A stretch of 64,000 nt of DNA, taken from assembly GCA_964507055.1 (NCBI GenBank), contig CAZDOJ010000001.1, forward strand, positions 13,210-77,209, given 5' to 3'. The stretch is from an uncultured Gammaproteobacteria bacterium (lineage in GTDB: Bacteria > Patescibacteriota > Microgenomatia > Levybacterales > UBA12049). Position numbers and translations under genes: made by a program. Below are positions 24,992 through 64,000 of the stretch, one piece after another; the first letter of the stretch is position 1, and every line of letters starts with the position of its first letter. The notes beneath the pieces were generated by a model. That model saw nothing but the letters and a program-made list of their open reading frames with translations, was not told where the DNA came from and made no database searches.

Positions 24992-27016
24992 ATGGAAAAG
25001 GATAGATTGTTTTCAAACAGAGATAAGGCTTCTCGAGAAATGTACAAGCAAACACGTAAAGCGATAGGTGGACCTACGCGTATTGATAGTTTATTCGTTG
25101 CGACTACTTTGACTGGAGAGCCCGTCAATTATAGAGAAGATTTTACTCAACCATTGCTTGAAAGTGAGTATCGTAAGGCAGGATTAATCATGCATACGGT
25201 GGAGCATGCAAGAAGTAATCCTCTTACATTGGTCCCTGAGTTAGTGAAGACGAAAGCGTTTGCCATTGATGCAGTAATAATTAATGGTGAAATGCATAAA
25301 GATAATGGCACACATATGGTTGCTGTTGTTCCAACGGATACTGAAGAAGATGGTACAAAGCTTACTGAATATCATGTTATTGATTCTCTCACCGAGGGTG
25401 GTGTTACTTCATATAAGTCAGAAATAGAAGCCTATGAACATATCCAATCACTCTTTGTACCGGAATCTGTCCTCATATCTCTTCACCCGAGTGAAAAAGA
25501 AGTTGAACGAAGAACACATCATGGAGATGAAATTATTACGGAAATGCTTCAGGTTGGGGATAATGCCTTCATAGAGGTTCAGGTTGCAAATGATGATCCT
25601 AGATTTTTTGGAAAGAAAGAATCGGAAGTAACTACTGCTGAAACGCTCGAGCAAGACAAAAAAGCATTGCAAGAAGTGATGCATGCACTTATTGACGATT
25701 TCCATAGCGAAGATCCAAGTCGTAAGCAGTATCTGTATACAGAATTCGCAACCATAGCAGCTCGACACGATATGCGTTACCCTTTGCTCTCTGAAATAGC
25801 GATGGATCATCTCGAGCCAGGTGCTACTCCTAGTTCCGAAGATCTTCAAAATGTACATAAGACTATCGAAACACAGCCAACAGATAATAGTATCGTGGAT
25901 ACACAAATTCCAGCATCAGTACTTCGTTCTGCCAAGCGATTGGTCGCTCATTATGCACAAGAACAAGCAAGTGACCCCTCGTTACGCGTTGTAGATATTG
26001 ATGCTCAAGTATCCTTTATTGATGAACAGGTTGCTCTTTATAACAAATCGCTTTACGATTTAGGTGATCTTTCAGAATATAACCCACGAGAATTTACTGG
26101 AGATGAATTACTAAAAGGAACCAGAGCTGCGTATGAAGAGGCACGAAGAAAGGGCTTGGATGTAATGACACCTGATTCTGAGAATGTCCGAAGTGATGGT
26201 AAGGTCGCGGTAACCTATGGATTCACTACATTTGAAAAAACAGGGAAATGGCGTAAAAAGCAGCAAACCTCGTGGAGATCTGCAATGGTGTTGGTTCTGG
26301 ATACAGAACAAAGAAAGCCTATTATATATGGTGCTCAGGATGGATCTTCTCATGAAATTATGATTGATGGTGTAGGTACGTCTGTTGAAAATTTGACTGT
26401 TGATAGAGCGGTTGCAGTTCATACCAATAATTTAAATATAAAAGAGGTTGAGGTCGAGGGTGGTGCTTCTTTACATTTTGATAGTGGACATCTAGCATAT
26501 GCGACTGTTCGTCCAGAAGCGACAGTTACTTTTGAAAACTCAGTTGTGAATATGGTAAGTTCAGACAAGAATACTCGAACGTATGCACATTATAGTCAGA
26601 TCGGAAGAGTGCAGGTAATAAATGGACTTTTTGATGTAGGTGGTACAGATATTGGCCATTTATATGCGAGCGATGCTAGAGTAAGCGTGTATGGTGACAT
26701 AGTAAAGCTTACTGCTGATAATAAAAATACAGCATTTACACAACAACAAGGAGTGTGCGGAGAATATTATGGACTGAATCAAGCACACATAGTGCACTTT
26801 GCTTCATATCCAGAGAAAGTGACTGCATCTCCTAATACAAGATATTTCGTTGATGACGAAACTGTCCAAATAGATCGTGATGGAAATAGATGTGTATATT
26901 CTAAGGCTTATGATCAATTTCAATATGACAGGGAACACACCATTGATGCGATGCATACGCTAGTAGACTGGTCAGGGCAAAATGATGATGTTGAAGGTCC
27001 CCGAAGATCACTGTGA
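24992..27016 (+). CDS. tail-family protein T1 (function unknown)
   Basis: The ATG at 24992 lies 9 nt after TATAAT (24977-24982); the track GTG at 24938 is less likely. The C-terminus is LVDWSGQNDDVEGPRRSL, followed by a TGA stop. Confidence 0.85.
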   Translation: MEKDRLFSNRDKASREMYKQTRKAIGGPTRIDSLFVATTLTGEPVNYREDFTQPLLESEYRKAGLIMHTVEHARSNPLTLVPELVKTKAFAIDAVIINGEMHKDNGTHMVAVVPTDTEEDGTKLTEYHVIDSLTEGGVTSYKSEIEAYEHIQSLFVPESVLISLHPSEKEVERRTHHGDEIITEMLQVGDNAFIEVQVANDDPRFFGKKESEVTTAETLEQDKKALQEVMHALIDDFHSEDPSRKQYLYTEFATIAARHDMRYPLLSEIAMDHLEPGATPSSEDLQNVHKTIETQPTDNSIVDTQIPASVLRSAKRLVAHYAQEQASDPSLRVVDIDAQVSFIDEQVALYNKSLYDLGDLSEYNPREFTGDELLKGTRAAYEEARRKGLDVMTPDSENVRSDGKVAVTYGFTTFEKTGKWRKKQQTSWRSAMVLVLDTEQRKPIIYGAQDGSSHEIMIDGVGTSVENLTVDRAVAVHTNNLNIKEVEVEGGASLHFDSGHLAYATVRPEATVTFENSVVNMVSSDKNTRTYAHYSQIGRVQVINGLFDVGGTDIGHLYASDARVSVYGDIVKLTADNKNTAFTQQQGVCGEYYGLNQAHIVHFASYPEKVTASPNTRYFVDDETVQIDRDGNRCVYSKAYDQFQYDREHTIDAMHTLVDWSGQNDDVEGPRRSL

Positions 27017-27052
27017 TCTTTTATTCTTGATAAGTGCTATAATACTACTTTT

Positions 27053-62690: not shown

Positions 62691-62697
62691 ATCCACC

Positions 62698-64000
62698 ATG
62701 GAGCCTAGAGAACCGAGAGGTTTCCGCAGAATTGCGGACAGATTATTATCTCCTGAACTACAGCGAGGAGATCCAAGAGGAAAAGCATTTACCATGGTAA
62801 ATGGTGGCCACGATGTTGAGGACATACCGCAGCTTAACCATTGGCGTGCACATGTTCGCACAGCATTGTCTATTACACCTACTGGGAAAAAAGTGATGCT
62901 TTATTTAGAGTCTGGAGCACTTACCACATTGCAATCTGAACGAATACAGCAATTAACCGATCAAGGTATGACATTGACTGATGCCGAAGCACAATTACGC
63001 TACGAAACTATAAATACTGGGGGACGTAAGTCTCGAAAAGATGCTGATAAGTGGAGGCCTGCATTGCGTCAACAGATACGAAGAGAACGTGAAGAAAACA
63101 GACAAACTTACCTTCTTGAAGTTCGAGATCAGGTAGATGCTCTGATCAGAGAATATCCAAATCGATTTGTTGTCACTTTAGAAGGACAAAGTGATGAAGT
63201 TCTTGATGCAAATAGTACATTTCAAGATGAAATTGAAGCACCTATTCCTACAAATGTGCGGTCTGGGCGTTTGATATCAGATCGGCGGGCACAGTTGGAA
63301 GACTGGGCAGCGAATCAAAAAGTTCGTGAAACTAAAATTGTTAAAGATATTACATCAGCAATGTCCAGAAAAGACGTACATGTTGGAGTAGGCTTACAAG
63401 GTGCATGGCATCACGGTGGCGTTGATGTTCAAGTTCGAGAAAATCTTCGTTTGCCTGATGATGTTTCGGGAAGAATTGTGACAAGTTCTTTTGCAGAATC
63501 TCACATGCCAGTTCAAGAGCGTGGACAGATTCTCTATCCGTTAAATCCTCAACTTGACCTCATGAGAAGAATTATTAATGGTGAAGCGATAAGTGATAAC
63601 GAGATTAGATTTGCGATAGAGGCAGAAACAATTGATTTTAATCAGATGACTCCTGAAGACGCTATCTTGAGAGGCACACGTCCGGAGGCCGATTCCTATC
63701 TCTCTGACTTTACAGCCGACACAATGGTGATCGGAGGAGTATATCCAACTGGAAAAAGTCCTGAATATTATAGAGATCAACAGCGATATGTTCGATTAAA
63801 AATGGCTTTGAATCAAGAAACCACGCAATTAAGGGCAGTATCTCCAAAGCAACAAGAAACGCAAGGAGATGATACTTCTTCATTGCATATACATGATTCC
63901 TCTGTGCGTGCACGGACCTATAGCGGATCTCCTGAGGACTATTCTTTATTATCTTTGTCGACACGCCAAACCATGGTTGCTATGGCAGGAGGAAGCGAAG
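62698..64000 (+). CDS. family A paralog (T23), partial, runs off right edge
   Basis: Absent from the ORF track because it has no in-window stop. MEPREPRGFRR...FTMVNGGHD...KVMLYLESGA...YPNRFVVTLEGQ...VGLQGAWHHGG aligns with the family A blocks. TGaTAAAAT lies 7 nt before the ATG. Confidence 0.75.
   Translation, partial: MEPREPRGFRRIADRLLSPELQRGDPRGKAFTMVNGGHDVEDIPQLNHWRAHVRTALSITPTGKKVMLYLESGALTTLQSERIQQLTDQGMTLTDAEAQLRYETINTGGRKSRKDADKWRPALRQQIRREREENRQTYLLEVRDQVDALIREYPNRFVVTLEGQSDEVLDANSTFQDEIEAPIPTNVRSGRLISDRRAQLEDWAANQKVRETKIVKDITSAMSRKDVHVGVGLQGAWHHGGVDVQVRENLRLPDDVSGRIVTSSFAESHMPVQERGQILYPLNPQLDLMRRIINGEAISDNEIRFAIEAETIDFNQMTPEDAILRGTRPEADSYLSDFTADTMVIGGVYPTGKSPEYYRDQQRYVRLKMALNQETTQLRAVSPKQQETQGDDTSSLHIHDSSVRARTYSGSPEDYSLLSLSTRQTMVAMAGGSE

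Follow-up and report, generated by a model that had tools for sequence, protein, structure and literature searches.

A tandem gene array with a lineage-specific C-terminal tag around a VirD4/TraG-type coupling ATPase in a probable member of the Patescibacteria

Why would dozens of bacterial proteins with mostly unrelated bodies end in one and the same peptide, and why should their genes surround a single coupling ATPase? The question is raised by a 64,000-nucleotide stretch of contig CAZDOJ010000001.1 (the window, by which we mean that whole stretch), in which 21 consecutive genes for tailed proteins run up to a gene for a VirD4/TraG-type type IV coupling protein (T4CP). The original prediction, drawn from the letters without database searches, saw here a candidate effector arsenal whose C-terminal signal is read by the adjacent ATPase. 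We find that the tail is a protein-level element private to one lineage and that orthologous proteins of a sister lineage carry a different tag. We consider it moderately probable that the tag is a lineage-specific address that routes effector-like cargo to the T4CP for T4CP-coupled secretion.

All 21 tails in the original prediction are as written, each at the extreme C terminus when the DNA is translated from stop to stop. The array does not end with the window, however: the contig goes on with 13 further tailed genes (T23, which the window truncates, and twelve others in loci L001 and L014), which makes 34 consecutive tailed genes from 24992 to an extrapolated position of ~79,834, spanning about 55 kb or about 4% of the 1.32-Mb genome. 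Together with one ATPase gene they form a compact array (coding density 97.6%, gaps of at most 157 bp) in which the 1250-residue T4CP is, as first noted, the only untailed gene. The shared part is also longer than the motif of about 18 residues described at the outset. Alignment of the last 40 residues gives a module of about 40 amino acids, P.L…[SP]L..φD…IDW.G..DPD.GP.[RK][ST]L-COOH, within which no known Pfam domain was detected. The final residue is L in 33 of the 34 tails, preceded by S/T at −1 in 32 and R/K at −2 in 31; P at −4 (23/34), G at −5 (22/34) and W exactly 15 residues from the C terminus (21/34) are also common. The tail is Asp/Gly/Pro-rich rather than Gln-rich, and its charge runs from acidic to basic. 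It has no transmembrane (TM) helix, which sets it apart from signals of the sortase or exosortase type.

A profile of the last 40 residues scores 23–52 bits in 21/21 window proteins, the match always ending on the final residue; the best non-array segment among 1130 six-frame segments of the window reaches 5.5 bits. The housekeeping proteins to the left of the array, said to lack the tail, indeed include none above this value, and the profile found no tail in any housekeeping open reading frame of the window or flanking loci. In leave-one-out tests 31 of the 34 tails were recovered at E < 1e-3. Of the other three, T21 and T27 scored 12 bits and are borderline; T2, at 2.6 bits, is a true outlier, yet it keeps VSW, an acidic patch and PPKKTL. 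Conserved tail residues are written with many synonymous codons, the final L with six Leu codons and Ser with both TCN and AGC. Because synonymous codons vary freely, conservation is at the protein level; neither recent copying or duplication of the tail DNA nor gene conversion accounts for it. We conclude that the tail is modular and specific, stands strictly at the C terminus and is under selection as a peptide.

An exhaustive HMMER search of 1.84 billion representative proteins with the tail profile returned 21 matches at E ≤ 1e-3. Twenty are the array's own proteins, matched at the exact C terminus, and the remaining one, the only departure from the strictly C-terminal placement that a profile scan had been expected to show, is a false positive caused by an internal repeat. 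The tag is private to one lineage. The contig is found 100% identical in several public assemblies, and all copies are clonal; a locus considered as a relative (L028) proved to come from the same organism.

Within the window, the array comprises the following features, the tailed proteins being called cargo.

24992-27016 (+), T1, tailed cargo, 674 amino acids, paralog of T27; tail end LVDWSGQNDDVEGPRRSL; start as in public assemblies
27017-27052 (+), example of a short intergenic promoter, TATAAT box (often TGnTATAAT)
27053-28978 (+), T2, pyridine-nucleotide-disulfide/flavin oxidoreductase-like body (Pfam PF13738, PF07992); most divergent tail, VSWDIEAGPEDQDPPKKTL
29136-32129 (+), T3, tailed cargo, 997 amino acids, no known domain
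32171-33298 (+), T4, tailed cargo, family C (with T6 and T8)
33347-33679 (+), T5, small tailed cargo, 110 amino acids; tail profile 36.8 bits, leave-one-out 19.8 bits
33755-35056 (+), T6, tailed cargo, family C
35098-36297 (+), T7, tailed cargo, singleton body
36348-37661 (+), T8, tailed cargo, family C
37667-38845 (+), T9, tailed cargo, singleton body
38811-39899 (+), T10, tailed cargo, family A; start uncertain (38784, 38811 or a later Met); overlaps the end of T9
39976-41019 (+), T11, tailed cargo, family A; protein used for the structure model
41055-42089 (+), T12, tailed cargo, family A
42117-43289 (+), T13, tailed cargo, family A
43320-44513 (+), T14, tailed cargo, family A
44557-46401 (+), T15, sigma-70-family factor (regions 2 and 4; Pfam, TIGR02937) with extra helix–turn–helix (HTH) domains
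46464-48695 (+), T16, tailed cargo, 743–753 amino acids, no known domain
48738-50768 (+), T17, multi-HTH body, family B; sister homologs S1 and S2
50811-53528 (+), T18, multi-HTH body, family B; 40% identical to T17
53577-56027 (+), T19, family A domain at the N terminus and an extension of ~500 amino acids
56079-57275 (+), T20, degenerate end …VQWDGSDSPRGVDGPKMR (GPKMR in place of GP.R[ST]L); leave-one-out 18.9 bits
57280-58797 (-), T21, tailed, directly downstream of the T4CP gene on the same strand; 26% identity to S4
58799-62551 (-), T4CP, VirD4/TraG-type, 1250 amino acids, untailed (Pfam, NCBIfam, motifs)
62698-64000 (+), 5′ part of T23 (to an extrapolated 64281), family A-related, transcribed divergently from the T4CP gene; 46% identical to S6 up to the tail

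The longest reading frame of T10, from 38784, overlaps the end of T9 by 62 nt, and the public gene call starts at 38811 (362 amino acids); the public calls for T11 and T16 are also shorter (347 and 743 amino acids). T20 and T2, with their divergent tails, may be clients that are in decay or are handled in another way.

Stripped of their tails, the 34 bodies group into 19 unrelated families, which upholds their description as mostly unrelated; not all are, since there are paralogs and one family of nine (family A: T10–14, T19, T23, T28 and T29). Family A gave no Pfam match and no useful PDB sequence match. An AlphaFold2 model of T11 built on a nine-sequence alignment (predicted local distance difference test score, pLDDT, 82; predicted template modelling score, pTM, 0.77) has the alpha/beta fold of the EreA/ChaN/TIKI/TraB superfamily, at 9–13% identity to structural hits, and the EreA/ChaN fold is also found in the injected effectors HopBA1, RRSP and PMT. 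In this model the body is confidently folded and the tail is predicted to be disordered. H31, K57, E63, E144, R196 and G218-x2-G221-x2-H224 are invariant in eight to nine family A paralogs, and the invariance of His, Glu and Arg residues suggests that family A is an enzyme family. T15 has regions 2 and 4 of a sigma-70 factor (Pfam Sigma70_r4, 2.7e-16; r4_2, 5e-16; r2, 2.5e-4) and scores 85.5 bits with TIGR02937, against a cutoff of 42.9. T17, T18 and T35 encode multi-HTH proteins and T2 a flavin/NAD(P) oxidoreductase; the remaining cargo is orphan. All of it is predicted to be soluble and most of it acidic. Hydropathy gave no signal-peptide-like N terminus and no clear TM segment in the cargo, with residues 40–58 of T6 as the only borderline case, in line with the minor exceptions first allowed for. 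Matches to phage (PHROGs) and defence (PADLOC) families did not go beyond generic HTH overlaps, and the island, with its coding density of 97.6%, holds no untailed partner or immunity gene, small ones included. Taken together, the cargo looks effector-like in its EreA/ChaN/HopBA1/RRSP-like fold, sigma factor, HTH arrays, lack of immunity genes and predicted disordered tail. As in type IV secretion system (T4SS) effectors, an unstructured C-terminal signal would be common to the substrates: 34 proteins share it, and disorder is predicted in T11.

Further evidence that ties the tail to the locus comes from a sister locus. L006, a 26.7-kb contig from an unrelated sample reached through P0022, the one diverged family A homolog, is laid out like the array: a 1349-residue T4CP and a T21-like gene (S4) share one strand and are flanked by genes resembling T17/T18, T23, T24, T25 and family A. 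All 11 complete flanking proteins carry a different C-terminal module, EP.VG.S...SI..QE...KGK[ST]K-COOH, which leave-one-out tests recovered at E < 1e-5 in 11/11. The two tail profiles do not cross-match and the tails cannot be aligned; S6 is 46% identical to T23 over residues 1–487, and the alignment ends where the tail begins. Both C-terminal tags have a basic residue at −2 and S/T at −1. The two T4CPs are 33.5% identical in the core only (Walker A lobe 55%, insert between the Walker motifs 29–38%) and have no detectable similarity over the N-terminal ~670 residues. Of all the evidence, this concerted switch of tags on orthologous cargo, beside a diverged T4CP, argues most strongly that the tag works as an address linked to this locus. 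The sister array also contains S13 (L006:20336-20557, 73 amino acids), an untailed fragment homologous to the N terminus of the T34/S3/S12/S14 family and probably a truncated pseudogene.

A related complete genome of 1.61 Mb, GCA_965230895.1 (OZ246394.1), has about 80% nucleotide identity in the flanking genes. There the flanking markers lie 50.9 kb apart, compared with 77.4 kb here, and from this spacing about 28.5 kb occupies the position of the array. No shared C-terminal tail and no T4CP were seen in the last 11 kb of that island. Instead, eight of eight complete, consecutive and mostly unrelated proteins (L027:460-11185, ~57.7–68.4 kb of OZ246394.1) share an N-terminal module of about 40 amino acids, M…ESFDG..P…RSF…PPP.RR[IV]VSP.DK, which occurs at N termini only, scores 44–74 bits and is recovered at E < 1e-3 in 7/8 leave-one-out tests. 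Two of these proteins have bodies homologous to C-tailed ones, the first (406 amino acids) to T24/S11 and the second (341 amino acids) to S7. In L030:1-9999 (ERR14821854) and L031:1-9999 (SRR19514066), seven genes lie upstream of the conserved DHH-like gene that borders the array on the right, and they have no C-terminal tail; an N-terminal motif there, G.SL[AS]……GI.AL, was set aside as unproven because only one of six leave-one-out tests gave E < 1e-3. Related genomes thus have the island at one and the same chromosomal site, bordered by conserved housekeeping genes, and on these alignments the site is one that hosts arrays with lineage-private terminal tags, of which the sequence and even the terminus change between relatives.

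Wider searches found no other relatives among GTDB species genomes (T4CP alone and a two-sequence T4CP profile) or IMG/VR viral contigs, and JGI/ENA metagenome contigs, searched with a T23/S6 profile and the pattern W..SHGDVY..DP, gave only five chance matches without similarity. The word-indexed protein search was lossy, returning three proteins for the family A profile and only the query for the full T4CP profile. Because it missed proteins present in the query alignments, its negatives on distribution are not to be over-read, and the exhaustive HMMER search is the reliable negative. The organism is probably one of the Patescibacteria: its dCTP deaminase falls in a cluster at ≥90% identity with MBA3724461.1 of 'Candidatus Levybacteria bacterium', and the small genome, salvage genes, cohesin/dockerin genes and pilin-like genes are consistent with this placement.

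The ATPase had been called VirD4/TraG-type, and by its domains and motifs it is a true coupling protein of that family. It matches Pfam PF02534 (5.4e-29), PF12696 (9e-10) and PF10412 (8.7e-09), all above gathering cutoffs; the best NCBIfam match is NF045973 (CD1115 VirD4-like, monoderm; 4.6e-20, below the equivalog cutoff). Walker A (GPTGQGKS at 692) and Walker B (LGALDE at ~985–988) are intact. The core covers residues ~668–1174 only, and the N-terminal ~670 residues are hydrophilic with no known domain. Between the Walker motifs lies an insert of ~215 residues (~761–975) that is predicted to be helical and is the least conserved part of the core. The protein has no useful PDB sequence match and is 24–25% identical to the nearest plasmid T4CPs. 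In the lossy word-indexed search, the ATPase-core profile matched only two ordinary T4CPs, from actinobacterial-type integrative and conjugative elements (ICEs) with a TrwC relaxase, and these were rejected as the same system on account of their different architecture.

T21 and its sister counterpart S4 (window 57280-58797, -; L006:4305-5792, -) are the sole cargo-type genes co-oriented with the T4CP gene and abutting it (1-nt gap), an arrangement kept in both lineages. T21/S4 itself carries the tag, and may be an adaptor, a plug or a first substrate rather than ordinary cargo. The C termini of the two T4CPs are related and Gly/Pro/Lys-rich, …KGKDDGPPKLGK (window 58799-58840) and …LGGPDPKKGSASK (L006:5799-5840), and loosely resemble the basic ends of the cargo tails; the resemblance is possibly compositional or that of a pseudo-substrate.

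The 5′ ends of the genes also share features. A TATAAT box ends 5–8 nt upstream of nearly every start codon in the array, as in the gaps 42090-42116, 48696-48737 and 50769-50810, and there is no Shine–Dalgarno sequence. The same pattern, again without Shine–Dalgarno sequence, is seen at housekeeping genes (for example, in the gaps 10165-10205 and 22810-22830), and the TATAAT pattern recurs at several genes of the sister locus. Boxes so close to the starts, with no Shine–Dalgarno sequence, suggest one promoter per gene and leaderless mRNAs genome-wide. Cargo N termini often begin M-x-E (MTER, MVEQ, MKER), in 18/34 proteins versus 2/22 housekeeping proteins (Fisher p = 0.0013), and E/R-rich N termini are also found in the sister array, the N-tagged relative and both T4CPs. 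The bias could stem from constraints that leaderless translation imposes, or mark a second element for recognition.

How do such tails compare with known secretion signals? The original prediction called the signal unusually well conserved next to the degenerate ones known in Proteobacteria; to hold such conservation to be unprecedented overlooks the XVIPCD of Xanthomonadales effectors (PMC8740702). There, X-Tfe effectors with unrelated bodies share one C-terminal XVIPCD, which is needed for recognition by VirD4 (through its all-alpha domain) and for translocation (PMC8740702). The likeness lies in many unrelated bodies with one conserved C-terminal element. The array tails are nevertheless not members of the XVIPCD family: the XVIPCD is a partly folded domain of ~120 amino acids with a Gln-rich tail (PMC8740702), whereas the tail here has ~40 amino acids, is predicted to be disordered, is anchored at the free C terminus and has no sequence similarity to it. 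X-Tfe genes are dispersed over the genome and have immunity partners, in contrast to 34 genes in one array without any such partner. The Xanthomonas VirD4 is a canonical membrane-anchored protein encoded next to virB in a diderm, whereas the T4CP here has 1250 residues, no TM segment and no linked virB genes, in a probable monoderm of the Candidate Phyla Radiation (CPR).

In Legionella and Coxiella, Dot/Icm substrates carry C-terminal E-block and hydrophobic signals, and the T4CP DotL acts with adaptors; Agrobacterium VirE2 and VirF have Arg-rich C termini. Like the array tails, these are unstructured, charge-patterned C-terminal signals read at a coupling-protein complex, and the effector repertoires are large. 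Those signals are degenerate and the effectors dispersed, whereas here a profile scoring 30–50 bits marks contiguous genes. No IcmS/W-type adaptor gene was recognised. Terminal markers on unrelated bodies, N- or C-terminal, are also known as MIX and FIX (type VI secretion), LXG and WXG (type VII secretion) and the C-terminal domain of type IX secretion, and there too a conserved terminal marker identifies the clients of one machine. These serve other machines and are folded domains or motifs across wide taxa; the tag here is lineage-private, with sequence and terminus switched. Closer in taxonomy, Nanosynbacter lyticus TM7x has a 'putative effector cluster' beside T4SS structural genes (PMC12102498, PMC10768705, PMC12592800, PMC11665869). 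The present locus resembles Patescibacteria T4SSs in its probable CPR origin and in a T4CP of monoderm (CD1115-like) affinity that is unlinked to virB4, and for them, too, host delivery is hypothesised; these papers, however, report neither a shared terminal motif nor a T4CP-centred array nor a giant TM-less T4CP. We found no published description of these tags, of a T4CP-centred cargo array or of a TM-less giant T4CP in CPR bacteria. Judged from two C-tailed lineages and one N-tagged relative, the locus appears to be a variant of the T4CP–signal–effector logic with several unusual properties.

Other export and sorting routes were considered and rejected: Sec, Tat and sortase/exosortase for want of a hydrophobic segment, type I secretion for want of an ABC exporter or membrane-fusion protein, type VII secretion for want of WXG or LXG, type IX secretion for want of a C-terminal beta-sandwich domain of ~80 amino acids, and encapsulin-type cargo signals for want of a shell gene.

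How, then, might tag, cargo and ATPase work together? We infer that the tag binds the T4CP, that a channel exists and is used, and that cargo is translocated into a host. Each gene would be transcribed from its own promoter as a leaderless mRNA. The disordered, acidic-then-basic tail with its free [RK]-[ST]-L carboxy terminus would dock on the T4CP, the candidate sites being its N-terminal half, which evolves fast, and the insert that separates Walker A from Walker B, where conservation is low. The hexameric ATPase would pass the cargo on to a monoderm-type T4SS whose genes would lie elsewhere in the genome. From there the cargo would enter the cell of the host that this reduced-genome bacterium depends on, where EreA/ChaN/TIKI-like hydrolases, the sigma-70 factor, multi-HTH DNA binders, the oxidoreductase and the orphans could reprogram or exploit the cell. 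We favour T4CP-coupled secretion as the most economical account because it fits T4CP biology, the XVIPCD precedent, the effector-like cargo, the disordered tag and the lack of immunity genes. It is also favoured because Patescibacteria have widespread chromosomal T4SSs that are relaxase-less, monoderm-type and of unknown cargo (PMC12102498, PMC11665869), with T4CP genes usually unlinked to virB4.

Several points weigh against it. Although such a T4CP would be expected to sit in the membrane, we detected no TM anchor, the highest 19-residue Kyte–Doolittle mean being 1.34 in the window protein and 1.41 in the sister, below a threshold of 1.6 that is a heuristic and not a dedicated TM predictor. 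Canonical VirD4 has an N-terminal TM anchor, usually of two TM helices. An AlphaFold2 model of the ATPase half reached a pLDDT of 33.6 and was not used. The original prediction had proposed looking for virB4/virB6/virB8-type genes alongside, and no VirB4-, VirB6- or VirB8-like gene is present in the 55-kb island, the ~25 kb to its left or the ~7 kb to its right. Known Patescibacteria T4CP genes are rarely near virB4, and in Southlakia the T4CP is dispensable and the T4SS essential, for which exaptation has been proposed (PMC12102498). At the same site in a close relative, homologous bodies share an N-terminal module, with no T4CP in the visible 11 kb; the tag is therefore not inherently a C-terminal T4SS-type signal, and its reader need not be a T4CP. 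Finally, the taxonomy rests on a single protein cluster. The proposal of an effector arsenal with a C-terminal signal thus keeps its specific tail, true T4CP, effector-like cargo and switched sister tag, and is weakened by the lack of nearby channel genes, the TM-less T4CP and the N-terminal module of the relative.

A broader version, that a Levybacteria-like CPR bacterium has a 'programmable' effector arsenal in which tag, giant soluble ATPase and T4SS act in series and tag and reader co-evolve, is one we hold only tentatively. Were it true, wholesale replacement of the tag between sister lineages, and its move even from the C to the N terminus, would imply concerted co-evolution of a secretion code and its reader. 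For the CPR, and for any monoderm T4SS, no effector repertoire and secretion signal would have been defined by sequence before this one.

Could the ATPase have left secretion behind? The tag might dock on a T4CP-like ATPase exapted away from T4SSs as a soluble FtsK/VirD4-type unfoldase, loader or hub, which might serve another export route, such as type IV pilus/competence-like machinery or vesicles, or act in the assembly or regulation of a complex in the cytoplasm. The absence of TM segments, the non-canonical N-terminal half of ~670 residues and the absence of T4SS genes nearby would suit such a role. So would the Patescibacteria T4CPs, which are mostly unlinked to virB4 and of which one is non-essential and possibly exapted (PMC12102498), and the co-variation of tag and T4CP fits this equally well as secretion. 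We nonetheless regard it as rather unlikely: cargo from 19 unrelated families with an effector-type fold looks like effectors and not like subunits of one complex, unlinked T4CP genes are common in true T4SSs, and the island encodes no alternative channel.

A reader other than the T4CP, be it another secretion or sorting system, a protease or chaperone (to which the tag would be a C-degron or processing site) or, after delivery, a host factor, seems to us quite improbable; the T4CP would then stand in the array for some other reason. In both C-tailed arrays a single conserved gene lacks the tail, that of the T4CP, and it keeps its place by T21/S4 and T23/S6; the island encodes no protease, chaperone, ABC exporter or sortase; a tag without TM helix is not of sortase or exosortase type; and a degron on 4% of the coding capacity seems wasteful. 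Such a reader would accommodate the N-terminal module of OZ246394.1, whose island shows no T4CP in its last 11 kb, and the basic −2 and S/T −1 residues of both C-terminal tags are reminiscent of C-terminal peptide-recognition motifs; the M-x-E bias of cargo N termini hints at a second determinant.

T4CPs are hallmark conjugation genes, and the array could in principle be a degenerate integrative conjugative or mobilisable element whose tailed proteins are co-transferred anti-defence or establishment factors. The nearest ATPase-core relatives come from actinobacterial-type ICEs with TrwC relaxase, the best NCBIfam match is to the conjugative CD1115 type, and GC content is slightly higher in the island. 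However, there was no Pfam or NCBIfam match to a relaxase, integrase/recombinase or VirB4 among the 35 island genes or the flank genes, no tRNA at either array border and no oriT-like repeat, so that what defines such an element is missing. Its constant chromosomal site between conserved housekeeping genes, the clonality of all copies and a T4CP only 24–30% identical to that of any plasmid or ICE leave this origin very improbable. We give next to no credence to the disfavoured notion that the termini are leftovers of repeated 3′-end duplication or of recombination cassettes, without a targeting role, for although many array genes belong to paralog families and tandem arrays favour recombination, the tag is common to nineteen unrelated body families, synonymous sites are scrambled while residues are conserved and spacing to the C terminus is fixed, and the sister-lineage orthologs have all switched to one other tag, which would need concerted, selected replacement.

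On the preferred reading of T4CP-coupled secretion, the locus bears on a wider question. The cargo of the widespread, relaxase-less T4SSs and orphan T4CPs of Patescibacteria is described as completely unknown (PMC11665869, PMC12102498, PMC12857230), and protein-translocating T4SSs in monoderms are barely documented. In this little-understood group the locus is so far the best candidate for a defined set of injected proteins with their address label. The array offers a list of 34 candidate cargo proteins, a sequence-defined tag that can be fused to reporters and a candidate receptor, with natural specificity controls in the sister lineage with its other C-terminal tag and the relative with an N-terminal one; with these in hand the question becomes directly testable. 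With sigma-70 and multi-HTH proteins among the tagged cargo, an epibiont might even act directly on the transcription of its host. More generally, looking for runs of adjacent genes with a shared terminal peptide could serve as a discovery rule and reveal, in uncultured bacteria, effector arsenals without homology to known effectors.

The flanks of the array are largely housekeeping. On the left lie genes for deoxynucleoside triphosphate salvage, ThyA, DHFR, SHMT, S2, EF-Ts, RRF, RseP, Pgl, Zwf, Gnd and ProRS, together with VWA/SdrD_B/cohesin-dockerin surface proteins; on the right, the untailed DHH-like gene is followed by HIT, S21, YbeY, DnaX, YbaB, Prs and RecR. S21 (L014:17092-17280) belongs to a cluster at ≥90% identity with 83 members, including a protein from a metagenome-assembled genome labelled Methylomirabilota; this label is at odds with the Levybacteria one of the dCTP-deaminase cluster and probably stems from a mis-binned contig. 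The surface-type genes (window 582-4812, -, and 11594-13407, -; L003:10799-16694) encode VWA, SdrD_B and CarboxypepD_reg domains, dockerin-like C termini and a cohesin-domain protein, as well as a Hint/pretoxin-HINT domain protein with a Gly/Ser-rich end, and may be adhesins or polymorphic-toxin-like proteins of an epibiont. Between them, at 4950-11525, is a compact block for deoxynucleotide salvage and thymidylate synthesis with two dCTP-deaminase/dUTPase-like genes, dNK/Tmk, Tmk, ThyA, DHFR and SHMT; the 1.61-Mb relative has this block too, slightly altered, with a NUDIX gene in place of one of the genes.

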